Assembly: GCA_036172245.1 (NCBI GenBank)
Contig: JAYWIR010000022.1
Coordinates: 1,736,001-1,800,000, forward strand
Length of the DNA: 64,000 bases
Direction: 5' to 3'
Source of the DNA: Raillietiella orientalis
Taxonomy: Eukaryota
Shown: positions 5,361 through 63,700 of the stretch, one piece after another
Layout of the letters: every line of letters begins with the position of its first letter
Numbering within the stretch: the first letter of the stretch is position 1
Program-made: the position numbers and the translations under genes
The notes under the pieces: generated by a model
The model's input: the letters and a program-made list of their open reading frames with translations, nothing else
Database searches by the model: none
What the model was told of the DNA's origin: nothing

Positions 5361-6005
5361 TCTTCGGAGGAATGGTTATTTTTCGTGACAACATCGCTAC
5401 GGGTGGCGGCGGCGCTTGCTTGCGTGGCAACCACGTTCGCTCGCAACGCTTTCGGGCTGGCGACAGTCGACCCGTGAGTTGAGAGAGCGAGTGGATCCGA
5501 TCGACGAGAGTGCGAGCAGCGGGTACCCAGGCTGGAAGTACTCTCCCCCTGCTCGTGGGCATCCCGAAGCACGAATCGAGGATGGTACACCGCCGACTCA
5601 CCGCACATACAGCGACGGCGGGTGGGCAAGGTGGATGAGGAAGAGCCCAAGAGGAGCGATGAGCGCGATCGGAAAAATTCTCCGCCCACCCGAAGCGGCA
5701 GCAGGTTGTCGTTATGACGACCCACGCCGCGAACAAATTCCGTGCGAACTGCCAGCTGCGTTCGTCGTCCTCCCCTCCCCCTGAGCACGGAAGGGTGAGG
5801 CGGCACGGGCAGCAGCTCCGTTGGCTTGCCCGCAAGGGCTGAGGGCATGAAACGGGGACGGAGTTTGCTCGGCTGGCTGCGAGGGGTCGGGCGACGGTCA
5901 TGCTGTTGGCCGGGTTAGTGCCCTCCGGAGAAACTGCGGCGACCGCGTTTGCGCGCTTGCGTGTCTCCGCCGGACCGCGGACTGCTCGCGTCTGCTCTTG
6001 CAGTC

Positions 6006-13200: not shown

Positions 13201-16109
13201 CATCCTTTCAAGAATGCGTGCTACAGAGATGTTTCATGATTATTCAAGTGAGATTGCCTCTACCTGGTGACGATCTTCGTGTCGATTTTCTTTCCCTCTG
13301 GATAATGCCTCCGTCTTGCTGGTGAATTTTCGCAGCGATGCAGTTCTCTTCCGTCCCGCGCAGGCAGCAAACACTTGCCATGTACTCAGCAGATCCCAGG
13401 GTTAGTCCTCGCGAAGGCAACCACTTGCCGATCATACCCGCAACGGGCCAGTCTTCAGTGGCTGTCGACGAGCCACGGCGTCGTTTCCTTGCAGACGAGT
13501 GATCTCTCGGCAAGAAGGCGTGCAGCAACACCCTGATTCTTCTTCCCAGCGGTAATTGAAGCTTCCACCTCCATTCGGGCGTCAGAACGTCGAGTCCACC
13601 ATCTCCCCGGGACTCGATTTGGTTTCTCACGCGAACGCGGAACCACCCTTTGCCTCACAGGGAGCGTTCCTCTGAAGATCCTCTGTCTGTTTCTTTAGGG
13701 ACAGGGAAAACGATAAGAAGGAGGCGGAGAGGATGCGCGGTCGGCCGGCCTGCAAAACCCTGAGATGGCTCTGAGATGCTCCTGGTGCCGTTGATCTCCT
13801 GGAACCGCGTTTTTCCGGAAGGGATCACCATTTGGATCGGGTCTTCATTCCGGTCGCCTCCGCTTTCTGCCTTTCGTTCGCACGCCTCTCCATTCGGCCA
13901 AGCTACGTGCGCAATGCCTGTTGCGAAAAGTCTGTTTGAATGCTGGCTGCAGGATTCCCTTCTGATACTTGGTGGTTCCACTCTGTCGTGACGGCTTTGG
14001 GATCCTCGCTATGGAGGGAAGACTGCCGCAGGTAAACTTCCGAATGGACGACTTGTCTCCTTGTGCGCCGGTGGCAGCCAAGGACTTGTTATCTCGTTGC
14101 TGCAGCGCACCCGGAATGGGAAAGGGAGCATGGGACTTTTCTTTGGTGCAAGGGGCGTCACTTCTGGAATCCCTCCATCGTTGTAAGGACTGGAGTGCCT
14201 GGAGGAGGAAAGCGGTTGAAAACGTGGACATCACTTTGGAAGTGCGCTCGCAAATACTTCGTCTCCTGCGACGGCTGACATCCCTTCAGGGCTTATACCT
14301 CGCAGAATTCGGCAAAGGCGTCCATGCTGGCCGTCGCATCGCTCTCCGCGATTTTGTCTGCCGGGAAAGCAAGAAACCCCGGTTACTTCCCGTCGGAATA
14401 CGATTTCTTCTGCTCCTTCACCGTTGCAGAGAAGACCCAACTCCTGCGAAGCCGGAAGACGGGCGAGATGGTGGACGCACACGCCACACCTCGTTCCCGA
14501 CAGAAGGGAGCATTTCGGCAAGGTGAACTTCGGAGTGTGCCTCCCAGAAGACATCCCTCTCTTTGCCTTGCGTCAGGACATTTCAGTGCTGCCCTCTAGG
14601 CGGAAGCAGGTCGTGCTGCTTGTCTTCCAGTGCAATCGGCGTTCGCATTTCAGTTCCGGGAAATCCGCATCCGCGAACTGTTCCGAGCAGGAGGATCAGG
14701 AAAGTTCGGATCGTCCCTGCTGCTGCTTCCGAGATGCGGTACCGTCCAAGGACTGCGACGAACGCCGTCTCCGGCGATCCTGTTTGCAGGGGTCACTGCC
14801 AGGGACTTGCTGCGCGATTTTCTACGCGCGGCACACTTTTGGCAGGCGCCGTGATTGCACCGTTCTCAAGACTGGTATACCCGCTCCCTCTTCGCGACGC
14901 TTGGCGTGCAGGGGTCCGGGGATTCACCCGCATGGCAGCCTTCTACATGGAGAACGCTGCTCCTAGACTGGCATGTCCTGAAGGAAGACACCAGGATGAA
15001 GTTATGAAAGTCATGGTGCGCCTGCTTCGGCTGCAGATCGGAAGGTGAGGCAAGAATCCCTTCTCACTGCGTCCCCCCATTCCCTTTATTTGTCTACGGA
15101 ATGTCCCCTTCACTTCCGCTCCAGAGCGCTTGGAAACTTCCCTGCACTGAGTGTCGGCGACTCCTATCCTTGAACTTGCGATTTTTCTGCTTTTGTTTCG
15201 GGAACTGCGCTGCCCTACGGGTGCTCGCTGGTTTCCTTTGCATGAAGACCTCGACGCCAACGGGTGATCCTGAGCTTCCTCTGCCGAGATCGTTTCGATC
15301 TGCTGCAGGATCTATGAGCGAAGACCCGTAGGTCGGTGCTACGTCTCGCCTCCTCCCGCAATCGCGCAGACCGTCGTCGTATCGTGAGGAGGCTACGCGA
15401 TGTCGAAGAGAAAAAGCGATCCCGCGTATAACTGCTGCAAAGATGATGACCAGGTGGCTTTTGAGTCCAGTCGGGATGGTGGGTAGTTTGCAAGAAGATC
15501 GCGAAGCTGGAGCGCGACCTTTTCTTTCCCACAATGTCAGAGGCTTTCTCCAGCGAGGACTGTCGCGTTCCTTCCCCCCGCCCTTCCGAAGGTCGTCTCT
15601 CACCAGGGGAAGGAAGGAAGAACAGCTAGGGTGGAGCCCAGTGTTTTACCCAGATCTCGTTTCCGTGGATGGATCTCCGCAAAGCCGTCTCCTTCGAGCT
15701 TCCATAAAACGATCTTCCCTCTCTAGCGTGTGGAAGCAATGGGCGTCGTCTTGTCCTACGGAGCATCGCAATGTGTCCAGGAGTTGCCTGCCCGTACATA
15801 AAGGGAAAGGAAAGGCGTGTGGCGTTGCCAGCCCAATTCGCTTCCCTGTCACGTGTGAGTTGGTTGGTTTCGACGCGATCCGATTCAGCATGGGACCGTT
15901 CTTGACAACGGTTCTGGCACTCGCCACCGGAGGGGAGGACACTTTCAAGTGAGCAGCGCTGGATGCCACGCTTACCTGGCTGCGTTAGAAGGAAAGCGGT
16001 TGCTCCGAGGAACTTTCCTCTTGGTCTAGGAATACTCTGGGGAAAAATTGAATGGAAGACAGGTGCTCAGAAATGGCGCGTGCCGGTCCCTCTTCCTCCA
16101 GCTTCTTTG

Positions 16110-16490
16110 GAACGGGAGTGCGTTCGACATGCTGTCGTATGGTTGCTTCTCAGTTGCTCTGCTCGTTTGATTGACAAACGCGAGCTCCTTCCTCATTTCC
16201 ATGGTTTCGAATTACTAGCTGGTGTCGACGATGACTCTTTCTTCGTCAATTTAAATGGATTTCTGGCTAGATTGGCGCACTTGATCTCGTCAGAGAGCAT
16301 GTGCACTTTCCTTAAAATCCTGAATTAACTTCAACGGCCAACACTCGCGTTTGGTACCACCGGCGAGCGCGAGAGGTTCGGACGGAGCCTTCGTGTGCAT
16401 TGGGAGAGATCCGACTTTGAGAGGTCGCCGTCTACGCAAAATGAATGGCTGGCGGCCTATCGAACGCGCGAACCGAAGTACTGGTTCCTT
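16110..16490 (+). pseudogene. Possible decayed GT31 (beta-1,3-galactosyltransferase-like) fragment
   Basis: W....C.A followed by FELLAGVDDDSFFVNL..FL..L resembles the KxDDDxFVNxxxL motif. No further convincing motifs were found. Confidence 0.25.
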
Positions 16491-16826
16491 TTCCTAAAAT
16501 TGGTCCGTGACTCAGGAACGAATCGTGGTCTTCGACCTAGCGGGAACGCTTCTTCGATAGAGTGAGTCTTTGCAACGCTGCAAAGGTGCGATGGTGAGCG
16601 CAATGAGCACCTTTGCCACTTCCGTGAGTGGGTAACGCGTCGTCACGTCGTGTGCACGTCGAAGAACTCGCTCGCGTTGAGCCGGCAACGCACCCGCGTT
16701 CCCGATCCCCCCGATCGATTTCCACTCTCCGAGATGAAAAGGGGAATCCCGGAACGTGGTGTTTGCTTCCACTCACAGGTCTTTTTCAGATCGGAGCACT
16801 CCAGTGATCGATTCGAAGACACGCCC

Positions 16827-18459
16827 ATGGGTCAATTGTGGATGCTCGCCCGCTGCGTCCAAGTGTTGCTGTGCGCCGCAAACGTGGCTGCAACTTGCTG
16901 GAAACCGGAAGACTTGGGGCAACTGGCAGAGTACTCGGGCACCAGGACCTTGTACAAATACATCAGAGGGAACGATTTACAGAACACGCCACCAGGTACC
17001 CTCCAACACCTCTTTCTTGGGCGCGCCATTTCTCCGTGGATTCTCGTAGGCTGCGAGGCGGTTGGGGTGTGGCTGTACGCTCGGCATGGAGCTCGGCTTC
17101 CCAGCAAACCGGACGTGGATAATACCAAGCGAAGTTTGGCTGCCATTGCAACTACTCTTGCAGAACACGTGATGAACAAAAAAGGTTGACGAGTTGGAGC
17201 ATTCGAGCTTTGCTCTGACCTTCAGTTCAGTCGCGCTCTGCCAAGGCGACAAGAAGTTTCCTCAACATCTGCGTGAGTGGAATTGGAACCAGATTGGGGA
17301 GAGCAACTACGGACACCTTGTGCAGAACGGCAGAGTGGAGATGAAGGAACTGGGTCAAAGATTTCGAAAGCATTTCAAGTTTCTGCAAAATTCGAAACAT
17401 GCAATCCACGTGAGTTTGCTTGCTCTTCTGGCTGTGCCTGGAGGTTTCTTTCAGTACGGCTACGGGGAGGAGGAAAGAACGGTGTCGAGCGCAACGTCTT
17501 TTTTGGAGGGCCTCGGCAGATCCGCAGATGCTAAAGCTGCCAATCCGAAGAGCACGGAGATGAAAGGGATGATAAGGGTGAGCACCTTTTATCTGCAGGA
17601 AGCGTACGAACTTGCGGATTGCCTTCCACAGCCGCATCGCTACTGCGAAAAGTGGAAGAAAGAGGTCTGCAAGAGTGAAGCCACTCTAAAGGAATTCAAC
17701 ACGTTCATGAAGGGACCATATATGAAAATCGTTCTCAAAAATGTTTCGAATAAGACCCGGATGGACAGATTGACAGCAGGTAGAGGAACGCATTCGAGAC
17801 GTTTGGGAGAAAAAGAATCGATTTTCAGAGGATGCGTTCCTGATGTACCAGGCATGCAACTATGAGAACGCGTGGGATAACACAAAAGTCTCCCCTTGGT
17901 GCCAACTGTTCGATGCGAGTGATATGCAGGTTCTTCAGTACTTGATAGATTTAAGAAATTACTACAAGTACGGCCGCGGGACGCCGTTGAATGCCAAGCT
18001 GGCCTGCTACGCGTTCGACGACATGGTGAAATATCTCACGTGAGCAGCCGGCAACTCCAGACGGCAGCTTTTGCTCACTTTCCTCTCTTCAGGTCCCACG
18101 GGCACAGTTCATTCTATTTTACGCACGAGGGATCCATTTTGAAACTGGATACCCTGTTGGGTTTCTTTCAAGATGACTTGCCTCTGGAAGCGCGCATTTA
18201 TGAGCAAATGGCGAACAGGAAGCAGAAGGCGAGCACAGTGTGTCCTTACGTTTCGAATCACCTCATGGTGGTCTACAAGTGCGGGTCAACCAAACTCATG
18301 GCTATCTACAGGAACGAAAAGCTCATGAAGCTTCCCTTTTGCGAGAACCGCACCACCTGCTCTGTTGAAAAAGCGCTGCAGGTGTTCCAGAAATTGCAAC
18401 ACGACTTCTGCCGGGACGTCGATGAAATTTGCTCGCTTCAAAGAGTCACCAAAGCGTAG
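16827..18459 (+). CDS. MINPP1: Multiple inositol polyphosphate phosphatase (histidine acid phosphatase clade 2); exons 16827-16995, 17050-17184, 17231-17409, 17455-17577, 17632-17779, 17829-18039, 18093-18459
   Basis: Signal-peptide-like start, YSGTRTLY, catalytic RHGARLP, GHLVQNG..EM..LGQRF, ERT..SA.SFLEGL, MYQAC.YE.AW...SPWC.LF, DLRNYYKYG.G and YFTHEG. All six introns are GT-AG (54, 46, 45, 54, 49, 53 nt) and splicing keeps the frame through to TAG at 18459. Confidence 0.93.
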
Positions 18460-18614
18460 GAACACCTCGGACACATTCCGCAATGCGATAGCATGGAAAT
18501 TGTCCTTCCCGCTACGCGTCTTCGTTTCTTAGAACCGTGCTTCCTTTTCTCCGCGGGCGTTCCGGACACGCGCTGCCTCTCGCAATGTTGAGCAAGACGA
18601 ACGCCCTTCTCCAG

Positions 18615-18620
18615 AATAAA
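18615..18620 (+). promoter_or_regulatory. Candidate polyadenylation signal of the MINPP gene
   Basis: AATAAA about 155 nt after the stop codon, followed by a T-rich tract at ~18650-18667. Confidence 0.55.
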
Positions 18621-21540
18621 ACACCCGGAGCAGTCGGACTTTCGAGTTGGTTTTCTTTTCTCTTTTTCACAACGTCTTTTCCTTCTTCCGGCAGTTAGGT
18701 GAGCGACAGTAGTGGACAGAGGTCGTGACGAGGCATAGGCAACTACGGAGAACCCGTCGGTGCACGCCGACAGAGCCCGAGATCGCTCGTAGGGTAAGCC
18801 ACTGCCTCTGCAGCGGAAGAGGAAGAGGACGCGTGCGAGCTTTTTCAGGTTCGCTTAGCAGTCGCATGCGCTGCGAAGTGCCAGAGCACAGTCCTGCGGC
18901 CGTCGAGGCGGTTCCAGTCGTCGGGCGGGGGAGGAAGCCGAAGAAGCTTCGATGGCAGTGCGAGACGCTGCTGGTCTTCGAGACGAGACGGGACCTCCTT
19001 CTCTTTTTAGGGAAGTGTCGACTTCTTCGTGTCGCAAAGTACAAGGGCAGTCGCGCAGCCCCCACGAGCAAGGAAATAGGAGAGTCCTCCCAGAGGCTCG
19101 CCTGTCCTCTATGCCAGGTACTCTGCAGGATGAGGACTCGTGCAACGCCCGAGGGAGCAGCGCCATCTCTTCCAGTGCGTCCAGGAGGTCTTAAAACCTC
19201 TCCCTGTCATTCGCTGACTATTTCCTTCCTTGCACCGCGTGGCAACGGTGTTCCAACGGGAGACAGTCCAGTCCTTGGAAAGTTTCTTACAAGTCTTCGT
19301 GGAATCAGAACGAGCGGTCCGCCTCCACCTCGGCGTCACCGATGGACACGCCGTCAGGAACTTCCACTACCTCGTGTCCCGAAAAGTTTCCAAGAGGCAC
19401 GCGAGGAGGCGCTTGCGTGCTCCGTTTCACGTGGAACAGAAAAACAAAGAGAAAAGTCTCGAAGGAAGATGCGAGTTGGCTGCCTCGCATCGGAAAAATC
19501 TCGGACGGCACTTCGGAAGCCATGGAACGTTTTTCCCGGCACTCTCTTCGACTGCCGGGAAAAACTCCCGACCTACACGCCGAGGCAAGCAAACTGTTTT
19601 CTGCTTTCCGGATTCGCTATGCGGGCTCTTCCTCCTGATGGAGCACTCGACTCTAGTTCGTAATGACGAGTCATTATCACTCCTCAGAGGTGGGATCGTC
19701 CCCAAAGGGTGCAGCCGCTACGTCATAACGGGGACACTTACGCACGTGCGGTAAGAACGTCGGAGGGCTTCCTTCGGGATGGAAGCACATCTCTGGGGCA
19801 GTTTTACTTCCAGACGCTGTCTCGCAAGACTTCCTTCGAGCCGGGTTCCTTTATCCTGGCTCACTGGTTGCCTCCTGTCTAGATATTCGCCGACAAGTGG
19901 CAGTACCGGTGGCCGCCCCATCGCAAGGCAAGAGTTGCCGTCATGTTATGGGGCCACTTGAGATCGCCATCGGCCACACGCAGATTGCGACCGAGGAATG
20001 GAGGAATCTGGAAGGTGAGGTTTCAGGGAACCTTAGGTCGACCGTGGGCTGATCCACGCGACGCCGATGAAGTGAAACGCTCCCGTCTTGCCCTTCCTGG
20101 GGAGAGGCCTACGAGGATCTTCGAGATGCATTCGCTTTGCACCGCCGAACAAGTACATCCTTCCACTCCTCGATTCGTTTCTTGTCCTTCCTTCCTCTCT
20201 CTTCATTGCTTCCTGGTTGCGTTTCTTTGTCTCCAGTTAGAGTCGTCCCACCGGGTAAGCACCCACAGCTGTCGCTCTTGAACTGTACGTATTTCGGATC
20301 CCTTGTTCATTCAACATAGAAGTTGTTGCTTTCCGTGATGGAGGACACGTCGGGACCTTTCTTTCAAGAAAGAAAAAAAGGCACGCCGCGGGGGCTGGGC
20401 GTTGCGTTCCACCGGACCTTATGTTCAGAGGAATGGACCCAGCAATCATTTTGAATACGGCTTGTCTCTTCGAGAAGGCGCAAGATGTATTCCGGCCGAC
20501 TCGGCTGAACAAACAGGAGGAGGATAGTATCCCCACGGCTCTTCGAATGCCCCCGTGGGAAGAGAAGTTTCAAGTCGCAACACCCTCAGAGGATGTCCTT
20601 GCATGACTTCCGGCTCTGCAACCAGTCGAAGAAGCTTGTGGAGTCATCAAACGTTAGCTACAGGATGGACATCGAGAAAATGAGTTCAGTCTTTGTCGTT
20701 CAGTGAGGCTACGGAGAAAGACCAGGCAAATTGTGGACATTGAAAATAGGGTCCCCTTAATTGGTCAAAGACGCACGAGGAACTCAAACTCATGCCTTGG
20801 GGCTTCTTAGATTGGGCTCCATTGTATCCTCGGGAACCAGGGTCACGCCATTGGCCCCAGCCCCTCGGAATTGTCAATGCTAGCTGCAAATTTGGTGCCT
20901 GGAGAAGAATGTTTAAGGAACAAGAATGCGAAGACGCTCTTTGACCACCATACCGGCCTTGGCAGAAACCCACTAGTGCAACCTTCTAAGCCAAGCACGA
21001 TCGGAGTCACCGTCAGCGGCACTTGTGGCTTTGCAGCATTCACGTGGTGAGTCTTTCACTAATCGTTTCGCGCTCCCTTCATATTTAGGTTTCTGAATTT
21101 GTGAGAAGACCATGGGATCCCCCTGCCTCTTTCTACTTTCAGCCTTGAAGTTCTCTTCCGTCTTTCGTTGATGTTGCTGAATCTCATTGAAACCTTCGAC
21201 CGCAGTGTCTTCCGGATTGGCTCCATTCTCGAATGCTTTTCCCGCATTCGGCAGGTGGGCCAGAAATCTTTCGTTCGAAGTCGTCTATCTCACCATTTCA
21301 ACTCTGTACTGTCCTTCCGCGATGATCGGCAGACTCCACTGCCACCTGAATTTGCCTCAATCCCCTGCTGGTTTTCCGAATTCCAGCATTCCGTGTTTCA
21401 TCCGCGCAGTTTGGTTGTTCGCCACTCTGATGCAACCATCAGATGTTGCCGTTTCTTCGCTGCCAACGCGACATTCCTTGGGCACATGAAATGGTGTCCA
21501 AGTTTTCATGTGTCTGAGAAGTGAATTGCAGATTCCATTT

Positions 21541-28479: not shown

Positions 28480-30882
28480 GGCTCTGCTTAGCGGTAGAGT
28501 ACTCGGGAGACATCCTGCTAGACACCAGGCAGCTTGCAACCGTCGTGTGACCACCCTTAACTACGTTCGAAGCTCCAGCACGTAACGGCTGGTCACGACG
28601 ACTTGGATGCAAGAGGCGCCTGCGGAAAGTCCTCCTTGAATGGAGGAACCCCGCGGCAAGTTCATTGCGGTGTTCTCCGGCTAGTGGAGGACGACGATGG
28701 AGAGTTGTTTAATTTAGGTCTTCTAACGGAATCCCTCGAGGACAGCGCAGTGAACGGCGGACCGTGAACAGATGGAGGATGCAACACTCCCAGAAGCCAG
28801 GTGTCTGAGCCCATTACTCGCCAAACCTAAGTGCAGCTTTGCTGTTTCTACCGGAAAAGGAAGCACCGCAGTGTTTGCACTCAAGGGAGAGACATCCCTG
28901 CTCCCTCGAGGGACAAGCAAAGCAGGACGCTCCATCGAAAGGAGTTCCTCGTCCCACGAACGAGTGACCGCATTCGAATACTCGCCCGCCTTTCAGACTT
29001 CGAGGAGTTTCTTCACTCATGCAATTTTGCTGCTCACCTCTCACGCAACCGGCTGGCTGCATTCAAATTTTTCAATTTGGATTGAACAGCGCCGGGACTG
29101 AGCATGTACGGATATCCGGGACCGCTGCGTCCACACCTGCCGGACATCTCGCATGGGTCCGAACACGAATTTCCGCACTTCAAGGGTTCCCTCCGGCAGC
29201 AGCTAGAGAGTAGCAACCCAGCATGTCCACGCTTCCTGCCGCCAGACGTTCCGGTTTCTAGTGCAATGAAATATCCAAGAGTGGTTTTCTCGGAGAAAAG
29301 GCAATCAGTTTCCTCAGGAGAAGAGAGAATCCTTGCATCCAGTGTCGACCGCGCGAAATCGACGTGAAAAATCCTTCTTAACCGCCGCATCTCGTGGGGG
29401 AGGCGTGCTGGCACACACAGAAGGGAGATCCGCCATCTGACAGAATACCAGTGAGGGGAAACGCGCTTGAAGTCGGCTTTTCGGGATAGTCAGGACGCAC
29501 AAGATGGCGCACTGGTCGTTGGCTGCCTCTCGGAAACGGAAACGATTTTTCCTACTGTAGAACGCAGAATCTGGAAGATCTCGAGCCTTTCCTCCCGAGT
29601 GGATTTAACCATCAGGAGCCTCAAGTTGCCCAAAGAGAGTACCAGCGCAGACGTTCACGGGCAGGAGCTCGTCAGTTGGGCTAGCTTCCTCCCATGCGTC
29701 CTCAGCACCAACTCCTAGAAGATGCTGAACGGCAGGGAGTTGGAACTGCCGCCCGGCCTGATGCTTGAGCGCAAGTAACCGCTCACGCTGCGACTGCTCG
29801 AAACCTCAATTTATGCTTGCGTTGCTCCGGCAGGGATGCTAGTTGACGAAGAGAACGTAAGTCCACTGAGACGTGCACAGTTCTCAAGAAGGAGTTCGTG
29901 GGTAGCCGCAGCGGTCTGCTGTGTGCAGGTCCACCGCGACCACCAAGGCTTCCGAAGTTTGCTCATGCTCGGTTGCAGTGGACATTGGATCATTCCTATC
30001 CGCAAGGTAACGCGATTTTGCAGAGTAAACTAGGACCTTTTAGAAGGAAGGTTTGCAGCCATGCACCGTTTTGGGCGAGCACAAGTCCAATGCGGGCATA
30101 TCGAGGACACTCTTGGATCCTTCATAGCAGCTTCAGCGTGCAAGTTCTCCTGGTGCACAAACGTGGGAACGATGCGCTCATCTCCTGCCTTTCTCTTCAG
30201 TGTCCCTTTTCGTTCTTACTATTCTGGAAACAGGATGTTCTGCTGTTTCTGCACTGGGAGTTCCAGCGCAATCGACTCAAACACCTGGTTTCAGGGGGAG
30301 CTGCCTCCCCGAGGTGTCTACAGTGCGGGGCGATTCCATCGCCCCGCAACTTTTCTTGAACTCCAGATCCGTGCAGAACCTGTGGCTAAGGTTCTCTTCG
30401 GCCCTCCGTCAGCCGCAGGACACCACCACGGCCCTGCTGCGGAGCATCTTCTGGTGACTGGTGACGCACTGGAGAAGGGCACTGGATCCCGACAATTTAT
30501 TTCATTTGTGCCATGGTGACAGCTCGCCGTGTCTTCGTAGCAACTTCGCGGCGAAGAGAGACCACCAGCATGTCAGGAGTCCTCACGAGCGCAGCGGTGA
30601 GGTGACATCATTTGCCAGAAGTCTCAAGGGAAATTGCCAGCATCCACAGCTGCTTCCAAAAATCAAGGAATGTTACATACCAAAGACCTTTTTCTCCTCC
30701 CATGCATCTTTTTTTATATGTTTTCTCCTTCCGTTCTCTACTTTCCGTAAGCCGCGTGATCATTCCCGATGAACTTCTTTTTTGTTGGCTTTTCTTGTTG
30801 ATTGGGAGAAGTACATTTTCTCTCAAGCTTGTGGTTTGTTTTGGTTTTTCAAAATAAACATCCCAGCGTGGCAGGGTTAAAA
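28480..30882 (+). mobile_element. Degenerate Tx1-like element (ORF2 relic, 3' UTR and terminal stem-loop)
   Basis: RGKFIAV...RVV endonuclease relic (~28650-28725); IRSLKLP....SADV (~29610-29655); LHWEFQRN...SPRCLQCG zinc-finger region (~30250-30330); T-rich UTR; AATAAACATCCCAGCGTGGCAGGGTTAAAA at 30853-30882. Confidence 0.65.
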
Positions 30883-30889
30883 CCTCAGT

Positions 30890-31455
30890 GTCGCGGCAAT
30901 ACCTTCTCGCGAACCGCTGGTAGATCTTCTGCTGGATTGGACGAATGGTCCCGGATAGTCGTCACAACCTTTTCTGCAGCGCTGTCTGCCCTCCGGGCAC
31001 TACATGATAGCATCCGACCGGCAGTGTGCGACTTCTCGTGCTGCATTGAAAGTGTCGAGAACTCCTCAACCGCTGCAAGACGAGCGTGTTGGTAGACGAC
31101 GCCATTCCTCGTTTCCGGGCAAAGTCCTTCGGAGGAGTGATTTGCTCGGAGTGCCTCCGAAGAACTCGTGGTCCGTTCCCTGTGTGTGGACACCTCTGTG
31201 TTTCCGCTTCAGTGGAAGAGGATGTTCTGCTGTTCTCCACTGGGGGTTCCAGTGCAATCAACGAAGACAGCTACTTTACGAGAAAATTGCCTCCCCGAAC
31301 TGTCTTGGGTGCGAGGCGATGGAATCGTTTCCGCACCTCCTGTTGGACTTCCGTGTACAGGAGGACTTATTGCAAAGACTCCCTCCGGCACTCCGTCAGC
31401 GGAAGGAAACCGATTTCAACGACGCTTCTGCACCGACGGCTGGATGAAGACGGTT
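30890..31455 (+). mobile_element. Tx1-like ORF2 C-terminal fragment
   Basis: VLHWGFQCNQRR...SPNCLGCEAMESFPHLLLD. The DNA is visibly similar to 30233-30360 and 32940-33125. Confidence 0.7.
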
Positions 31456-31874: not shown

Positions 31875-33763
31875 CATGAGCTGGTGCAAATCTCCTCAGC
31901 ACCGAGATGACGAGCACCAGACTAGCGAGGTCTGCCTCCAAGCCCTGAAGGGACTCCTCGCAAAGGCCATCCTCAATCAGTTCTTTCGTCTTTCGATACC
32001 GGTGATGCCAGAGGAAACTTCACCCCACGTGAGGAACTCGTCGAGGCGTAAGCATTTCTCCTCGTCGACGGCGATGGCAACCTCCGGCATGATCAGCTCC
32101 GCAAGGCTGCTTTCAGTCGGTACGTCTGCGAGGAGTAGTGGGACATTACAACGCTACTTGCGTCGGATGGATCGTACCTCGTTGACCCGCGATCTTTCCC
32201 ACAGAGAGCAGCTCTCGTTTGAAAGCAGGCGGTCATTGAAATCTTTCAAGGAGATGCACCGCTCTGGAGCTGGGTATGCGAGCCATTGGCTATCGAAGGC
32301 GTTGGAGAATTTCATTCTTCCGACATGTCGATGAAGGTGTCTCGACCGGCCGGATGGATCGATCGAATTAGAGCAAGCCGTCCGATCGAATGATTGCAGG
32401 ATGGCCGACATGTGCCTCCTCGTCGAAGGCTAGACCGTGCAGCGCTCTCACCTTCCTGCGATGGACCAGGAACGCGACTCTGAACGCGAATTTGTTCAGA
32501 GAATCGCCGTCATCGTAGCGTTCCTCGTGTTTGTTTCTCGATTTCGCCGACCTTCTGAAGCAATCCGCCTCCTTTCCCGAAGTACATCTGTGGATCTGCT
32601 GTCGGCCTCTGCGGTTCGCTGCTGGGCGACACAGACCATGGTTTCCTGGGTTACGTTCCCAGGAATGAATGCAGAGGAACATCGCCTCCTGCGACTCCTC
32701 CTGAGTCACCCTTTGGTGGACTTTCCGATGGACGCTGACCGCATCGCTTGCCGTTGCGCCTTCCGCCCTCAGGGCAAACGATGAAAGTAGCCCACCGGCG
32801 TGGTGGGAGTTTTCCTGCACCATCGCTGGAAAAACAAAACCCCTCCATGCCTGGAAGACTCCTTAGTTGGTAGATGCTGTAACTCTCCGTTATGTGACGA
32901 CGGGACTGCTTCGGTGGGTCGAACTTTTCAATGTTGTCCCTCAAGAACTCGTGGTCCCTTTCCATCCTTTAAATGGTTCGGTGTTTCCACTCGTACTGCT
33001 CTGTCTTCATTGGAAATTTCAATGTAACGAGCCACGGAACCAAGTTCCGCAGTTGATGCATCCGCGATCTGTGCAAGTGAGCGTCGATGGAATCGATTCT
33101 GCGCCTGCTCTTGGACTGCTGTCAGCTCCATGAACTGTGGTGGAGGCTAGCAATGGCACTCTTTCACCAGGAGGACGCCGCCCGAGTCGTGATGCGGCCG
33201 ATGTTCGCGCCCAGAGGACTGTCGACTGGAGCGGTGATGGCAACCATGTGTTGCATCCGCTCCATCATCAAGGCCCGACTGTGGTGGAGACTATCGCGTA
33301 GAGAAAAGAGGTCACCACGATGACAGCTGCCTACATGAGAGCGGGTGCAAGGTTGCCTTACCTGGAAAAGGATGCGAAGGAGATCACCGTCATCTTTTCC
33401 TCTTTGATGTACAGTTATCAGCGACGGACCCGGAGACCTCTATTCCCATCCTTCCATTATTATTTTTTTCTCATTCCTCATCCCCATTCGCTTCTTAAGT
33501 TTCCCGGTACTTTTTGTATTCATACCGTTGCGCACGCAGCGAACACAAGGATCTCTGCTCCCAACCATCCAATGTTATCGATTTTCAGTTTTTCTTTGTT
33601 TTTTTTTGTCTTCTTGGCCCACACCTGTTCTGGACATTCTGCTGTCTCGACCTACCTGTCGGTGGATGCGTCCCTTGAACTTCTGTTTTCCACGGTGGGG
33701 AACTGGATTCCCAACCGGTTTATTTTTCATAAAATAAACGCCCAGGCGTGAACGGATGAGAAA
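31875..33763 (+). mobile_element. Degenerate Tx1-like element (RT relic, zinc finger, 3' UTR, terminal motif)
   Basis: LVDGDGNL (~32060); AMDQERDSER (~32460, cf. LDQEKAFDRV); LHWKFQCNE...MESILRLLLDC.QL.ELWW (~33005-33145); AATAAACGCCCAGGCGTGAACGGATGAGAAA at 33733-33763. Confidence 0.72.
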
Positions 33764-40038: not shown

Positions 40039-40600
40039 ATGCCACCCGGATACGCCGGGACGTTTATCAAAACTTCCGTATGGTCAACAACATACGTGGT
40101 ATCAGGCCCCACTAACGGCCATGCAGCAACGGACCTGTCGGGACGCCGGGACGCAGCCCGGTGTGACTCTCCTCGGCAGTGGAGGGAGATGGGGGTGAAA
40201 ACAAAAATAAAAAATAAAGTAAGAAACAAAAACAAAAAGAGTTTAAAGGGACGGGAAGGGATCACATTCCACTACGTAGAGGGCCCATCCTCTGCAGGAT
40301 GCCCTCAAGGTCCTCCTTCAATCCACCCAACAGGGGCCATCCGGGAGCTCTCTGCAGGAAGCGAGCAGCATACGGGATGACATTCGTCACGATGGAATCT
40401 CCATCTTCGGCTTCACTCCAGGCCGCCACAATACCTCGGACGCAGCAAAGGGGGCTACCAGGGCTGCGGCTGGTCTCAGGGCGTCCCACACTAAGAGAAG
40501 ATTGTAAAGGTCTCTGGGGTTGCCGCCAACCGGTATCTCGAGGTTTGTTCCGAGACGCTCTTACAGGATCCGGAGGGCAGGGCAGTCGACTATAAGGTGG
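40039..40600 (-). mobile_element. 3' portion of a Tx1-like element with terminal stem-loop
   Basis: ORF tail ending at 40262, T-rich UTR, and GATAAACGTCCCGGCGTATCCGGGTG (reverse complement of ~40043-40068). Confidence 0.6.
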
Positions 40601-40639
40601 GGGAGGCATTCCCGCTCCTCACACCTGGCACATTCAGGA

Positions 40640-41400
40640 CTCACTCCCCCCAGGCTTCGGCAGTCGAAGATTTCTGCGATTTGCTGAGCCGTGGGACAGG
40701 ACTACGCGTGAGCAGAACGAAGTCGTCGCTGTTTGCGGTTGGTGCAAAGTGGGCAGGACGACCTGATTGGATCCGCCTGGGGATCCCCACGGAGAGGTAC
40801 TTGAAGTACCTCGACGTTCCGTTGGGGGACTTCTGCCAGTCAGAAGCCTGGTCAGGTCGTCTCCAAAAAGTGGAGTCAGCCCACTTTGCCATCTCGGCTT
40901 CCGGCTGTTTTGAAGCGCCCTTCGTAGGAAGGGCAGCGCCGTGGCCAGTGGGGTCGTCTCCGCCCAAGTGCCTCTGGCGGGACACAAGATCATGTTCCGC
41001 AGCGTGCAGCGGGTGTAGATGCGGGTGCGCAGGCGGTTGCAGGATTCTCCACTGATGTCTTTCAACTTTGCCCACGTTCCAACTGTTTCTTCCAGCCATG
41101 CGGAGGAGTTGGCGGGGCTGCAGACCATCCACCCGTTTTCCTTTGCCAGGGTGGCCATGCGTCCTAGGAGGAGTCCGCATCTTCGTATCTTCCGGCCGGA
41201 GCACAGAGGATAAGACGCTAGTCCTTGCGTCCTGGAGACTCGGCTGTCAAGAAGGTGGGCTGGAACGCACCAAGGGGTGCTCCACATCTTCGCTGAGATG
41301 GCCATGGTGCGCCATCGTAGCTGAATTTCCAAGCGCTCCAGCGTCAGGAGACCAGGACCGCCGTCCCGACGCGGAGCGCGTCTCGACGTGGTAGGATTGA
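40640..41400 (+). mobile_element. L1/Tx1-like RT thumb-region fragment, inverted relative to the adjacent 3' portion
   Basis: TGLRVSRTKS...YLKYLDVPLG (cf. SGLKVNxxKS...KYLGVPL), W..RL.KV, and later QEGGL. Confidence 0.7.
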
Positions 41401-42636
41401 GGCGAAATGAGAGTGGCCAACTGACTCGAAGAAGTCAATCTTGCCGACGGAACAAAGTGTGGACAAGCGGATTACCATCCATCTTTGATGTGGGTACACA
41501 AGTCTTCCTCGGCAACAGGGATACATTCTTTTTACTCTCCCTGTCTGGACTCTCCGCTGTTAAAGTCTCAGTATTTTTCACTTTCCAAGTGGAGGCTGTA
41601 CGGAACACTCTTGCTGGGCAACAAATTGTGTTCCATTCTCGGTGCGTGTAAATCTCCGAAGAATTCCAAGATGAGTTTACAGGATGAAGAACCCTCATTC
41701 TGAAAAAGTCCTTTGCTGCTGCAGCACCCGCCGCTACCACCGAATTTCATATCTTGACGTCTCCAAAGATGCGGATGCGATGTGAGAAAATTATCCTTCG
41801 GGAACCATCCATTTGGCGTCTGCATTTCCAAAGTCGGTTTTGGTGCACCGCGTGTGTGTGCATCAGTCGTGCTCGAAGCTCGCAGCAGGGGAAGGAGGGA
41901 ATCGTCTCTCCACCACCCAGTCCAAGACATTCCTGGCTTCGCACGCGCGAGTCCCCAAATATGAGCATCGCATGCAGGTTGTTGTGGAGCTGTTCCGTCT
42001 CTTTCGGCGTCCCCGCGTCTTGCCAAGCATCGCAGGTGCGGATAACAAAGTGAGACCCACGAGGAAGCCGCTGATTCGTAGCTCACGTAGAGAGAAGAGC
42101 TGCACGACTGATGTGATGTTTACGGTTGAGAGTTTCCTTGGCCTCCGGTGCAAACAACTACGAAACTACGAAAGTTGGGGAGGGATTTTCTCCGTTCGGC
42201 GTTTCCTCTGCGTAAGGTGAAGTTCCCGTGCTGCTTTCAGCGACTTCGTAGCCCGGCGACGGAGACGGAAATCTTTTCCTGACCTTTGCTAGAATGAAAT
42301 TATTTTCTTTTCCTCTTTTTTCTTCACCACAGATGCACACTTGGGTGTGGTGGCATGCACTTCGTTTCCCCGTGCCTACAGAAAGACTTGTGGGAAGATT
42401 CCGTTTCTTCGAGGCCGGATTCTCTTCAGATGGTGCGGATGACCGGTAACAGTCCTCGCACACAATCCGAGTTTTTGATCCTTCGTGGTCTTCGTGCCAA
42501 TTACTTGTGCTTCCCTTTGGTAAACGGCGGTGAAAACGATTTTCTTAACAAGGTCGTACTTTCACGAGCTCTGCATATTACACTCCGTCAGCAGAGATGT
42601 GCCATCTCAATGCCATCTCACCAGCTTTTCTTTTCT

Positions 42637-43328
42637 TTTTTTTTTTTTGTTGTCTCCGAAGGGGAACCCCGAAGGGAATCTCCTTTCTCATTCTCTCCGG
42701 AGGGACACCCCCCGTAATGAGGGGTGGTTCTCTCCATTTCAACTTCTCCGAAGCGAACCCGGAAAGGATTCGCTTCTAGGAATTTCTTCTCCGGAGGGAA
42801 CCCGCAAGGGAACCGCTCCTGTTCACTCCTCTGAAGAGAACCCCGAATGGGCGCTTCCGAAACTCAGAAGGGGCACTGCAGCTTCCCGCAGGGAATCGCT
42901 CTCGCTTGCTTCCTTGTGCACACTCTGTGAAGAGGCGACGACTCGGAGGGACCCCCCAACAAGGGGGGGTCTGCTTTGAACAGCTGGAGAGGTGCCCGTG
43001 AGGGCTCCTGCTCCATCTTGAAACCGGAGGCGGTCCCCCGGTGACGGGGGTCCACTCTCCGTTGCACACCGGAGATGGAACTCCCCACTCCTTTATTCCT
43101 GGGAGGACCTGAAGGTCGACTGCCATTGTTCCGGCCTTCACCGGGAGGCCGCCGGCTTTTTCCACCGCCGGTGCCACGCCCGAATGTCTCGGCCCACCAG
43201 CGCCATCTTGCAGGAGAAACTCGGAACCCAACGGCGCACTGGCGTCAATTTATCTGCCGAAGTATTCGAACCCGCGACGCGTGGTGCCACGCGCGGAAGC
43301 CTTAACCACAAAGCCTCCGACGCGGTCA
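42637..43328 (-). mobile_element. SINE-like hairpin-array element, copy 2, full length with poly(A) and TSD
   Basis: The minus strand starts with an A-box-like AGGCTTTGTGGTTAAGGC and a B-box-like GGTTCGAATAC (43262-43272), then AAGATGGCGCTG and the hairpin array. It ends CTTCGGAGACAAC + A-run (T-run to 42648 on +). Flanked by AGCTTTTCTTTTCT (42623-42636) and AGCTTTTCTATTCT (43329-43342), 13/14 identical. Confidence 0.85.
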
Positions 43329-46300
43329 AGCTTTTCTATTCTGTCTATTCCGCTCTTGTCCTGCATCCGACGGCAATATTTCATCCCGTTCCACATTCAC
43401 TGCAACCTCACACTCAAATTCTGAATATTTTAGGCAAGATTCCCTCAAGGCCGTGGGAGAAACGCTTCTCTTCGAGTCATTTCTAATGATGAGGGGAAAA
43501 TTTAGCAGGTTTCCGATCGCGTCCCTTCCTTGTATCCAGAATTATCGAAGAGCCAGCAGCCTCACCTTGAATTTTATCTCCTTCGTAACGAAAGCATACA
43601 CTTGCCATTCCCTTCGCTTGATGATGCTGCAGTTTTCTACGATGCGACCGCAGTACGCTTCAGGCACAGGAACATGGCAAGACTATCCGTGACGACGTCC
43701 TCCGAACCTTTCCTGTCAAGAGCTGCTCATCCCGATCCCTGTCAGGATTTTGGGGGAGAATATGCTTCCAGAACGGAGGCATGTCGAAGGGAGTCCGGAT
43801 TCCCAGAAATGCGGATGCAGGTGGTCCACTGATTCTTTCTTGCCAAGTCCATTTGAGGCTGTCTCTGATGCTGAATCCACCTGAAAGCACCAGAAGCATC
43901 TGCTTCTTCGACAGACAGAAGGCGCAGCTATTTTGAAGGAAGAGCTTGGGAATCTCGTGTTTGTTTTTTTCTGCTCCCTGAACAGATTGCCGTAGGCGTC
44001 TTTAATGGTTGACCAGCACCCAATTTCATCTCGGTGCTTGCCCACGTCGATCTTTCTTCAGAAACAGCGGAAGTAGCAGCTGGACTTGCACTCGGTGCTG
44101 ATACGGGCAAGAGACTTGCAATCGCCTGCTGTCCCTACATCCGTTTTTCTCTAGCACTGTTCACAGTTTTCGCGGTAGCCACTGTCCATCCAGCTGTCGT
44201 GTTCTCCTTCGGAATGGCATTCTCGAAGAATTTCTTTCCGATGGTGTCGGTGGGTTCTTCACAAAAGATGGAGATGCAAACGACGAGATGTATTACTCGG
44301 ATCTGTCATGAGTTCTCCCAAGGGATACTTCTTTGGGTTTGTGTGCTCTCTCGGCGTCAATTTTCTCGTTGCTCGAATAAGGGAAAGGCTAGGGGAATGC
44401 GACTGCTTCCCCTTGATCGCCATCCCTCCAGCGAATGCGTGCGTGCAACCGCGTATCGGCACTCAGTTCACGTCATCCACGAGCGTCCCTTTCGTCTGCA
44501 TCCTTCGCCAGTTCCAAAACCTCCAAAGATTCCCATTCCAGAGGTAAGCGACTGGATCCTCGTGACTTTGAAGACATCGCATCCTCGCTATGGGACGGTC
44601 GGTGGCTGCCCCTCATCCACCGACTCACTCGAAGACTTTATTTTTGTGATTCCATTTGCATGGCAACCGCGGTTCCTGTGTTTGTAGCTTTATTTGGATC
44701 GTTCCGAAACTGATTACAACATGAAAGTTGCCTTACATCTTGGGAAGAGCGTTAGCATAGGGCACCTTCTTCTCCCGCACTGTATTTATGACTGCAGTAG
44801 CAGCGTAATTGGGATAGATTCTTTCTTCTTTATGGGAATTCGGAGGCGCATGTAGATCATCCGTGTGCTGCAACAAGAGTGGCTTTCCTCTGAATGATGT
44901 TGCAATGCACACACATTCCATTTATACAAAACTCAATGTATAGTAAATGCATACAACATGCCCTTTCCATGCTATAATGAATACCTGAATACAACGCAGC
45001 ATGTGCATAGTACACGCACGTATTTTACGAATAGGAACATTGCTCCGAATCCCTGCCTCGTATGCTGCCCATCTGTAGAAACACTGACATGCAAATGGAC
45101 CTCCCTATGAAGGAGCGGCTCCTCGTCGACGATTGTGCTTAAGTGGTCTCAATCCAAAGCTTCGCAAAGATGCGTTCTCGTACCAGCAGGAGGGGAGAGC
45201 AAGGTTCAAAGCTCATCTGGAAATCATGCGATGATTTCTGGCATTCTTTCTCAACGCAGAAGAGAGAAAGACGAGTTGAAAGGAATGCTGCACCAATAAG
45301 ACGATCCTCACCTTTTGCGTTTTGATCTGAAACCAACACCAAAAGGATAAAAGATAAACACTGAAGATCGCACTTGTGCTGGAGAGGTGGGAAGTTTCCG
45401 AGGATTGAATGAAAAGAGGCGGAAGATGGGTATGTCTGCAAAACAAAACCGATGTTGTGTCGGAAACAGAAAGTAAGTGGGAAACGATTCCATCCACTGA
45501 TTCCATTCAGTGTGAAGGGATCAGACAATTTGCGGAGATAGTAGCCTGAGTGCGCATGCACCGTGTCTTTCGAAGCCGGGTTTTCATAGTCACACATCGG
45601 ATTCACACCGAAAGAGTTTTGGTTGCTCATACTGATGATATGTTTCCAAGTTCGTTGCTGTTGCCCACAAGGCAATAAGGACGTATGACACGAAGGGTTG
45701 TCAGTGTGTGTGGCACGACGAAGCTTGCAGTATGCTTCATCAACGCTTGTGCCCATTTCAGACGTTTTCCGTTCTGCGGTTTCCTGTTTCTAGTGGATGC
45801 CCGTGCTTTCTAGTAGAGTTGCCGGATCTCTATTTGATTTGTGGCTATTTATATCCCTTGACGGAAATTTATGTACTCAGTCGAGTGCTTCCGTTTTCTT
45901 CGGCTTGTTAAGCGCAGCATGTGAGGACACCTAAAAATATGGCGAAGCAGACCCTCCTCGAAATTTGCTTCCCAAGGGAAAGTGGGTCGGATTCCTCTCA
46001 CAGGTAGTGAATACCGAAAGTACATGGGCTGACAATGAGGATAACTTCCAAAAGAATGGTTTCGGCTCCATTTGTGGTAGTTGGATTCATTTCTCCTTTT
46101 GGTTCCGCTTTCCAGCCAGCTCGTTATAAGGGAAAGGCGATGGCACTCTTCCACTGGTGGCGCATGGAGCAAATCGCGCCCCGCTTCAGGGTCCGCACTT
46201 TTAGAGGTTTCGTTCAGAGTTCTCCTTGGGGCAGCACGGAGTAGCAGGAATGTCTTTGAGGGAGTGGTCCATTGGTTTGTTCACCGATAGAAATCTTCCC

Positions 46301-61660: not shown

Positions 61661-61695
61661 AGGCTGCCATCATATTGTGATCACTGGACTGGATG

Positions 61696-62600
61696 ATTCT
61701 CACCCGGTTATGCCGGGGCATTTAGTACATAAAGCAATAAAAATACATTGGTGTGATAGAACCGTTGGTTCCACCACGTGCAATAAACCTGCCGAAGAGC
61801 GGTACGCAGATCGGCAAGGACCGCTTCGGAAGCACGGGGAAAGGGGAAACCAAAACACAAAACACACACACACACACACAAAACAAGGGAGGGAAATTTC
61901 ACACGGAGAGGGGGGAGGGGATCGAGGAAAGAATCACAGTACGCTGCCAGGCATCCTCTTCATCTCGTTCAGGATGCTGGCAAGTTCCGCCCGTGTATCG
62001 CCCAGGTGGGGCATCACGAGGCGGTCTTCAGGAAGATCCACGCCCAATGTATGGAGTCTTTACCATTTCGGCATCTTCTTCTGGCGTTCCAGGCCCCCAC
62101 CGTCCTGCGATGACAACTGCGAGGGACACGGTTGTTGGCAGAGCGGCTCCACGCTTGAAGAGGCGCCCGAAAATGTCCCCAGGGCCACCGCCCGCCGTGG
62201 ATCCTAGGGTCGCCGCGAAACGATCCCAAAGGGGTCGGAAGGCAGCACAGTCCAACAACAGGTGTGAGAGGGTTTCCTTCGCACACCTGCCGCACTGAGC
62301 GTCTACCCTTCCAAGTGTACAGTGGTGAAGGCGAGCTTTGCACGGGATTCCCCCATGCAACACCAGCAACTCCAACTCCTGCCGCTTGAGCCGGAAGGCG
62401 CTGTTGTTCCAGTACTCTGGAGGCCACTTCACCCCCACTGGAGGGATATCGAGTAGCTCTCCCCCTGCGTACACTGAGGTTGGACACTTGGGTTCGCAGC
62501 TATCCATCACCTTCCGAGTTGTCCAAGCCCCCATAAGTTTCTTCTATGCTGCTATGCAGCTGGTCACATCTCACCTTGCCGGGATTACGCGGTCACTGGA
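61696..62600 (-). mobile_element. Tx1-like ORF2 C-terminus, 3' UTR and terminal stem-loop
   Basis: LHGGIPCKARL...CGRCAKETLSHLLLDC..F..LW (intact CX2C..H..C finger) and AWNAR. Terminal CTAAATGCCCCGGCATAACCGGGTGAGAAT is the reverse complement of 61696-61725. Confidence 0.8.
61863..61880. repeat. (CA)9 microsatellite inside the retroelement 3' UTR
   Basis: Directly visible. Confidence 0.9.
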
Positions 62601-62604
62601 CTGA

Positions 62605-63385
62605 ATGATGGAAATCCTTCTGGGTTCTTTGCTGTTTCTCTGCTTCCCTTTGGAATTTTTTTTCGGGATTTCTTTTTTTTGGTTCGCTAAGTACTGAAGA
62701 ACTGTTTATCTCCTTAGGGAAAGGGGAGGAAGGGGGCTTACAAAGCTCTTTAAGCACTGTACCTATGTAACTTCAGGTAGAAGGCAACCCTGGAAACCAA
62801 CTAAAAGAATTCAAAGGAACGGGTCCGTTCCCCTTACGCTTGGTAGGTAGGAAACCCTGAAGGGAACCCTCGCCCTGGTTGTCTCCGAAGGGAAACCACC
62901 TCTTCCTTATTCACTCCGGAGGAGTCGGTTCCCCAAAGAAGCTTCCACCTCATTTCTTTTCCAAAGGGAACTCGGAAAGGATATTCTCCTGAATTTCTTC
63001 TCCGGAGAGACCATCAGAAAGAATCCTCTCCTTGTTTCATCCTTTGAAGAGAACCACGAACAGACGCTTCTCAACTTCTCTGGAGGGCACTCCGCGAAGG
63101 GAGCGGCACGCTTCTTACACTCTGGAGGGACAACCCTCAAGCTGGTTGATATCGCCGAGAGGAATATCAACCAGCTCCGTGACACGGTTTCCTTTTTACA
63201 ACCGGAGGGGAACGCCGCAGGGAACCGGCTCACTGATGTCCTGGAAGGAACCCGGAGGGCCAACTTTCAATTCTGGCCAGTCAAAGGGGGCATCCGGTTT
63301 CCGAATTTCACCAGTCCCGAAACCTACCGGCCGACCAGCGTCATCTTATCAGAGGGAGACTTGAAAGCCAGGATGCACTCCCATT
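62605..63385 (-). mobile_element. SINE-like hairpin-array element, copy 3 (tRNA-like head missing)
   Basis: AAGATGACGCTG (reverse complement of 63336-63347), CTCCGGGTTCCTTCCAGGA, hairpin units, TTCGGAGACAACCAGGG shared with copy 1, and an A-rich 3' end at ~62655-62680. Confidence 0.72.
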
Positions 63386-63409
63386 CTTTGCATTGGTCCC
63401 TTACGGAAA

Positions 63410-63700
63410 CCGTCAACTCTTAGTATCACGAGCAGAGACAATGGTCATACGGCCGCCAACGCGGACTTCCTGTGTTCAAAGATAATGGGGAGCAGGAAGA
63501 GAGGAAAGGAAAGGGGGAAGAGCACCTTTTTACTCTATGAAGAAGTCCTTGGGCAATTCAGACTAAGAGTCACTGCCATTGAACTTCACCTCCGTTCGCT
63601 CGTCTGTAGGAATCCATCCTCCTGGTTCCTGCAAGAGCAATCCAGTGACATCCCATCCCGAGATCCTCAGTAAGGGCCACCCCCCAAGATCCGGGAAAGC
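63410..63700 (-). mobile_element. Upstream remnant of the Tx1-like ORF2 (endonuclease start and WRP motif)
   Basis: LRISGWDVTGL-LLQE (cf. I.SWNVRGL...LLQE) at ~63625-63670 and RWRP/fs/PLSLL at ~63430-63462. Confidence 0.55.

Follow-up and report, generated by a model that had tools for sequence, protein, structure and literature searches.

Copies of the element in the window

Within the window, by which we mean the whole 64-kb stretch of DNA that was analysed, three copies of a repeated element are found near the remains of an L1/Tx1-type LINE. The copies (A, B and C), their parts and the LINE fragment are located as follows.

4553-5399, plus strand: copy A, older (BLASTN, nhmmer and MAFFT alignment)
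4555-4830, plus strand: head of copy A, with a B-box-like motif at 4624
4839-5370, plus strand: units of copy A
5379-5383, plus strand: T5 run near the 3' end of copy A
42623-42631, minus strand: 3' target-site duplication of copy B, AGAAAAGCT, a 9-mer at the exact boundary
42632-43328, minus strand: copy B, the youngest of the three and the best preserved, 697 nt with its tail
42649-43070, minus strand: unit array of copy B, with some 10 units that are 40-56 nt long
42653-42698, 42694-42749, 42745-42792 and 42788-42829, minus strand: canonical units of copy B
43019-43066, 42990-43009 and 42950-42971, minus strand: stronger variant hairpins of copy B
43091-43328, minus strand: head and middle of copy B, with the B-box-like GGTTCGAATAC and no formal tRNA call
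43329-43337, minus strand: 5' target-site duplication of copy B, AGAAAAGCT, a 9-mer at the exact boundary
61698-62592, minus strand: L1/Tx1-type LINE fragment, 5'-truncated, with a zf-RVT-like C-terminus; not part of the element
62656-62680, minus strand: A-rich tail of copy C
about 62659-63468, minus strand: copy C, older (nhmmer, alignment)
about 62808-63203, minus strand: units of copy C

That the three copies are homologous, as a preliminary description of this DNA had stated, is borne out by BLASTN identities of 68.9-75.2% (73.9% over 264 nt and 72.6% over 197 nt between A and B, 75.2% over 117 nt between B and C, and 68.9% over 177 nt between A and C), by nhmmer and by the MAFFT alignment, in which the mean column identity of the three copies is 62%. 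When an nhmmer profile built from the three copies was run against the 64-kb window, copies A, B and C were the sole matches at E<=1. The three places given for the copies in that description stand and the ends do not, as copy A reaches about position 5399 and the tail of copy C lies at 62656-62680. Without its tail copy B is 680 nt long, and the nhmmer spans of copies A and C are 847 and 810 nt. In the MAFFT alignment, A and C extend about 200 nt past the point at which B is polyadenylated, and positions 42940-42985 of B form one internal unit that is a gap in A and C; the number of units thus varies between copies, with one extra internal unit in B and a 3' extension in A and C.

Copy B runs along the minus strand from 43328 to a terminal A13 G AAA at 42648-42632. 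The sole 9-mer common to both of its flanks is AGAAAAGCT, which abuts both ends of the element exactly. With this duplicated target site and its A tail, copy B has the hallmarks of target-primed reverse transcription; no target-site duplication was recognisable in the flanks of copies A and C. A coding hypothesis for the element was rejected. The sense ORFs of the copies show no protein homology to one another (best E 0.15 and 0.24), and because they are not related as proteins we regard the element as non-coding. Pfam matched no family in the ORFs that overlap the copies, and a protein search with an ORF inside the element gave no match.

Relatives of copy B were also found in two sequencing runs, X1 and X2, for which the data are contigs and which are not on record as RNA; no run of RNA is listed as containing this DNA. 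In X1, 75 contigs fell on 42629-43333, that is, on the element alone, with none in the other flanking bins, and 2, 10, 25 and 38 of them belonged to the classes of 99+, 95-99, 90-95 and under 90 in their likeness to B. An X1 contig from the flank (42392-42546) differs from the window by one letter, which indicates that X1 comes from the same or a very close organism. A second organism, X2, contributed a contig of 955 nt; it aligns to 42659-43312 with 37 substitutions and 22 gaps and then continues 283 nt beyond the poly(A) point of B. Two pattern scans of metagenomes were made for further copies: one gave 0 matches, and the other gave 120 loci that are not relatives by nhmmer, with two short matches only (E about 0.0004-0.0009). 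The comparison of the family was made on three full-length copies. The earlier proposal of a non-autonomous retroposon on the poly(A) strand is supported by the duplication and A tail of B, the 75 diverged contigs and the lack of a conserved ORF, and we conclude with high confidence that these copies are members of one retroposon family, which is non-coding, non-autonomous and poly(A)-tailed.

The poly(A) strand is the sense strand of the element, as is seen from CGGAGA, from CTTCGG and from the avoidance of T runs. CGGAGA occurs on this strand four times in A, five times in B and twice in C, where 0.56, 0.45 and 0.25 occurrences are expected, and of 1000 dinucleotide shuffles 2, 1 and 20, respectively, had as many; the reverse complement is found once per copy, which matches expectation. 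CTTCGG occurs 3, 3 and 1 times in the sense orientation of A, B and C and 0 times in the antisense orientation of each. Runs of at least four T are reduced to one in 2284 nt of sense sequence against 9.4 expected, a value as low as which was found in 0 of 1000 shuffles, although this is closer to one observation than to three because the copies share ancestry. Sense runs of at least four A show no depletion (7 against 9.8 expected).

In copy B the B-box-like GGTTCGAATAC lies at 43262-43272, about 57 nt from the start of the copy. The same motif is present at the matching place in copy A (4624) and absent from copy C, the head of which is diverged or truncated. The avoidance of T runs and the position of GGTTCGAATAC form the pattern that a Pol III transcript would show, and these two features of the sequence make Pol III the probable polymerase of the element. 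The tRNA-like head of the preliminary description could not be confirmed, and of it the B-box-like motif alone is present: ARAGORN reported 0 tRNAs, and the comparison with Rfam gave no tRNA, 7SL or 5S match at the gathering score or at E<=10, and no family. With relaxed ARAGORN settings a tRNA was called in the first 81 nt of copy B (43251-43331), and this candidate was rejected, the same setting giving 52 hits in the 64-kb window. GTGGTTAAGGC of copy B presumably resembles the D-loop of a class II tRNA.

The unit array and its hairpins

Over its 3' two-thirds the element is built as a degenerate tandem repeat that recurs about every 42 nt. In each of the three copies autocorrelation peaks at lags of 42-43, 83-86 and 127 (z 2.5-4.3); Tandem Repeats Finder did not report the array. 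When cut at the junction motif, a unit consists of GGAGA(R), a purine-rich linker, G(G/A)AG..CCC, a loop and GGG..CUYC, after which the next GGAGA follows directly. It follows from this order that the junction between units, CUCC-GGAG or CUUC-GGAG, is self-complementary. GGAG is found in two places, forming the bottom of the 5' arm and also following the stem. The array of copy B ends in GGAGACAAC (42649-42657) immediately before the A tail; GGAGACAAC is invariant, and where B is polyadenylated right after it, A and C carry further units. The longest invariant block of the array in the alignment is TTCGGAGACAAC.

A covariance model of the unit, built from 24 units of the three copies, gave 13 hits at E<=0.05, all within the three copies (10 sense and 3 antisense), and its best hit outside them had E=0.13. 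Because the training sequences were themselves scored, these hits show that the unit is confined to the family and that units are heterogeneous, and are not an independent detection. The 6-9 hairpin units per copy, each followed by GGAGA, that had been described earlier hold as to their periodicity and hold less well as to their form, since canonical units at E<=0.05 number just 3-4 per copy and the others are variant or eroded.

Whole arrays were folded and compared with dinucleotide shuffles, giving z values of -2.6, -4.9 and -3.2 in sense and -2.2, -4.2 and -2.3 in antisense for A, B and C, respectively, with the sense fold energies below the antisense ones in all three arrays. The region of B upstream of its canonical units (42906-43090) has a folding z of -4.9, and 63113-63240 of copy C has z -3.0 to -3.9, which is due to a 13-bp palindrome. 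For the canonical GGAGA part the sense z against dinucleotide shuffles is -2.0 in B, -0.5 in A and -1.1 in C, and the antisense values are similar for B and C. Strong single stems are seen at 42750-42776 (11 bp), 42950-42971, 43019-43066 and 63140-63176, most of them in copy B. Two stems named in the preliminary description are indeed present, the one at 42750-42776, in which one G.U pairs on the minus strand only, and a perfect stem of 13 bp inside 63140-63176. Since copy C is otherwise eroded, this palindrome suggests a recent DNA-level event; it looks like a late addition of that kind and not like a conserved hairpin. The palindrome (63140-63176, minus strand) is AT-richer than the other stems, and A and B have a C-run/G-run stem at that place.

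The further claim that pairing persists while the stem sequences differ did not hold. Local pairs of B are kept in 45 of the 67 aligned cells of copy A and in 38 of 59 of copy C; in controls slid by 1-3 columns, 0.32-0.57 of the pairs were kept. One-sided changes break pairs about twice as often as they keep them (17 broken and 7 kept in A, 19 broken and 10 kept in C), two-sided changes keep the pair in 0 of 5 cases in A and 5 of 7 in C, and paired columns are conserved to the same degree as unpaired ones (0.73 versus 0.76 for A and 0.62 versus 0.66 for C). Among the 24 aligned units RNAalifold predicted 0 pairs. An imposed structure of 11 pairs was paired in 66.7% of their cells as compared with 66.8% in shuffles, 300 of 500 shuffles being as high, and the covariation score was reached by 127 of 500 shuffles. 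Covariation relative to shuffled controls, which had been set beforehand as the test, is thus absent from this small sample of units aligned by sequence; a single pair of columns (18/54; GC 7, AU 6, GU 4) looks compensatory. With the three whole copies as input, RNAalifold returned an unfavourable covariation term of +2.79 and chose long-range pairs between CUCCGGAG junctions. As pairing is not kept by compensation, we regard the complementarity as a property of the conserved unit sequence that is lost in inserted copies.

Two variants that form the majority in the reads, 42725 T>C and 42770 T>C (plus strand), turn an A-U pair into G.U on the sense strand only, and a third, at 42754, breaks a pair. 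The two G.U-preserving variants are small points in favour of an RNA-level constraint in the source lineage. G.T and A.C mismatches in stems number 24 and 21 over 30 hairpins (ungapped), with no strand bias. The majority sequence of the last 250 nt equals B in stability per nt and exceeds A and C (z -0.2 to -1.4). The stems may have a role in cis in the element RNA, although we would sooner doubt this than assert it, and the weak folding of the canonical part, the lack of covariation and the lack of a G.T/A.C strand bias fit functionless stems equally well.

On balance we consider the element to be, rather probably, an ordinary SINE-like retroposon family of about 0.7-0.85 kb with a quasi-oligomeric body of dyad-symmetric units. 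We are somewhat more certain that the array itself arose by duplication of such a unit. A single module with dyad symmetry would have been duplicated internally to give the array, its hairpin potential being inherited from the founding module and not upheld by compensatory change, and inserted copies would decay neutrally, leaving B intact and A and C eroded. A different origin for the same body would be a neutral minisatellite, that is, a tandem repeat that expanded at the DNA level inside a retroposon and whose dyad symmetry, seen in CTCCGGAG-type junctions and in C-run/G-run arms, plays no part in the RNA. The absence of covariation among units, the sense z of just -0.5 to -2.0 for canonical units with similar antisense values in B and C, the even numbers of G.T and A.C mismatches, the variable unit number and the occurrence of the sole perfect 13-bp palindrome in the otherwise eroded copy C would all be expected of such a repeat. 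However, CTTCGG is strand-specific (7 versus 0), the sense fold energies are lower than the antisense ones in 3 of 3 arrays and in two majority variants of the reads pairing survives solely as a sense-strand G.U, and a minisatellite is in our view unlikely compared with the SINE-like family.

The GGAGA motif and the neighbouring LINE

The LINE fragment at 61698-62592 lies between the halves of a 17-bp target-site duplication (62593-62609 and 61681-61697; one mismatch). The fragment lacks poly(A), its 3' UTR contains a (TG)n run (61863-61880), and its 3'-terminal hairpin at 61701-61717 is followed by AGA. Its ORF at 62031-62543 (minus strand) shows a weak zf-RVT match (E 4.7e-5, under the Pfam cut-off), which we take to be the CCHC C-terminus typical of L1/Tx1-type ORF2. 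A second copy of the LINE (40043-40059 and 40471-41434, minus strand) is decayed and frameshifted; it has the same orientation as copy B, from which it lies some 2 kb downstream, and its C-terminus is at 40471-40677 (38% identity, E 1e-8). ORF 40637-41434 resembles 186-497 on the plus strand (30% identity, E 5e-10). A protein search with the LINE C-terminus gave no match.

The LINE hairpin, CCCGGCRTAWCCGGGTG, occurs in the window at 61701-61717 and 40043-40059 only, which are both LINE 3' ends. Because both copies end in the same hairpin without poly(A), the LINE looks to be of the stringent, hairpin-tailed type, and for that reason it does not suggest itself as the partner of an element that ends in poly(A). 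BLASTN and nhmmer found no similarity between the LINE and the element, CCCGGCRTAWCCGGGTG is absent from the element, and the window yielded no poly(A)-tailed LINE that could serve as its partner. The neighbouring Tx1-like family had been put forward as a source of an ORF1 protein that binds the array. An L1/Tx1-type LINE is indeed present, but no ORF1 of it was found in the window, and it shares neither tail nor sequence with the element.

That proposal formed part of a reading in which the units of hairpin plus GGAGA bind, multivalently, a protein with CCHC zinc knuckles, for example a LINE ORF1p, and the element RNA either recruits this protein to its own retroposition or titrates it. In partition-function folds 2 of 12 YGGAGA motifs, those at 42792 and 42749 in copy B, are predicted to be mostly unpaired (mean 0.77-0.79), and the other 10 have a predicted mean unpaired probability of 0.01-0.37. 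Most YGGAGA are predicted to be paired because GGAG complements the CUYC that closes each unit. The motif lies after the stems and not in loops. No CX2CX4HX4C zinc knuckle was found in any frame of the window. A binding site would account for CGGAGA being present on one strand at 8-11 times its expectation and recurring at a spacing of about 42 nt, for TTCGGAGACAAC being the longest invariant block of the array and for the two exposed GGAGA of copy B, and the zinc-knuckle domain of Lin28 binds a GGAG-like element (excerpt of bioRxiv 10.1101/202036). With 10 of 12 motifs predicted to be paired, however, the motif can be explained as stem sequence, and there is no covariation among the 24 units, no zinc-knuckle ORF in the window and no LINE tail in common with the element. 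The claim that the array recruits or sequesters such a protein is therefore unsupported, and we think it improbable.

The element resembles the CsrB/RsmZ sponges and the Lin28/GGAG system in that a short G-rich motif is repeated beside hairpins. In CsrB the GGA sits in hairpin loops, whereas the GGAGA of the element comes after the stem and is complementary to its 3' end, and the analogies with CsrB and Lin28 are ones of functional resemblance only. We would also give little credence to a related model in which the modules of about 42 nt in active master copies, each with a stem-loop and an exposed GGAGA/purine-rich linker, would be selected docking sites for one RNA-binding protein, which could be a LINE ORF1p with a zinc knuckle or a host protein that binds purine motifs. 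If this model were true, the element would hijack the retrotransposition/export machinery multivalently, and the number of units would tune its success. For the SINE-like family favoured here, any function of the module would be likeliest in cis, in compaction, in stability or as a handle for the retrotransposition machinery, and the element RNA, as a probable product of Pol III, would be copied by a LINE that recognises poly(A) and not by the neighbouring hairpin-tailed LINE.

Comparison with known SINEs and other features of the window

In the excerpted text of PMC3531059, SINEs are defined as non-autonomous elements of <700 bp with an internal Pol III promoter and a head derived from tRNA, 7SL or 5S RNA that are reverse transcribed by LINEs, and the 175 families listed there range from 75 to 662 nt. 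The element described here is non-autonomous, retroposed and multicopy, as that definition has it; formal detectors did not trace its head to tRNA, 7SL or 5S, and of the lengths given above that of copy B without its tail falls below 700 bp and those of A and C exceed it. With the tRNA-head poly(A) SINEs that are moved by relaxed L1-type LINEs it has in common, as far as the same excerpts describe them, that it is non-coding with an A tail and a target-site duplication, that it is laid out as head, body and tail, that it is multicopy with a B-box-like motif and that it shuns sense runs of at least four T (here 1 run in 2284 nt). It differs from them in that its head is recognised by neither ARAGORN nor Rfam and in the greater length of copies A and C (810-850 nt).

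A parallel for the body is CHRS/CHR-2, a 'quasi-oligomer' SINE in which a degenerate motif of about 20 nt is tandemly repeated >10 times (excerpt of PMC3531059). CHRS and the element both have a body made of a degenerate internal tandem repeat of varying copy number, although the unit of the element is about 42 nt long with dyad symmetry and the likeness to CHRS is one of description only. As CHRS is such a case, at least as excerpted, a SINE body built from an internal degenerate array has precedent. Stringent pairs of LINE and SINE offer a different comparison. In the excerpts of PMC4176376, ZfL2 is a stringent-type LINE whose ORF2p recognises a stem-loop in the 3' tail, and the neighbouring LINE likewise has a conserved hairpin at its 3' end. 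The element also has stem-loops in the 3' region of its RNA, but it carries neither the hairpin nor any sequence of the LINE and ends in poly(A). No element of this kind was found in the partial texts of the literature on similar SINEs or on ORF1p knuckles together with SINE stem-loops, which is weak evidence of absence, and the family may already be catalogued.

It is very improbable that the copies are retro-pseudogenes of a host gene for a structured non-coding RNA whose cellular function the hairpin array serves: despite a head that matches no known SINE head type, a length above the usual SINE range and a related contig in a second organism, the three copies in 64 kb, the 75 diverged contigs and the variable unit number point to a long-lived amplifying family, and no Rfam family matches. 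A SINE-like retroposon family is of value mainly for annotation, as a lineage-specific, non-autonomous element to be masked and catalogued, and the analysis has established where its copies begin and end, which strand is sense and how the units are built. The family further illustrates neatly how the body of a retroposon can be made of a tandemly duplicated dyad-symmetric module, with a young copy next to decayed ones, and it would be of greater importance only if young subfamilies had selected stems or if a protein bound the GGAGA modules.

Self-BLAST and translated comparisons revealed another diverged repeat family in the window, with members on the plus strand at 583-780, 30229-30424, 31216-31411 and 32744-32942 (about 70% identity), which may be further LINE-related debris. 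Pfam matches among the ORFs of the window are zf-RVT and His_Phos_2 only, both outside the copies of the element. The His_Phos_2 match (histidine phosphatase, branch 2; 17923-18456, plus strand, E 9e-6) is a C-terminal piece and the sole signal of a cellular gene; a protein search with this exon gave no match, and the long open frames that surround it on the plus strand (about 14200-19700) have no Pfam match. Directly downstream of copy A, the region 5400-8600 has 59-65% G+C, the lowest fold energy per nt of the window and overlapping long open frames on both strands, of up to 444 aa, with no Pfam match. A dinoflagellate spliced-leader motif gave 0 matches in the window. The window as a whole has 52% G+C, with TpA strongly depleted (observed/expected 0.44) and CpG not (0.95).
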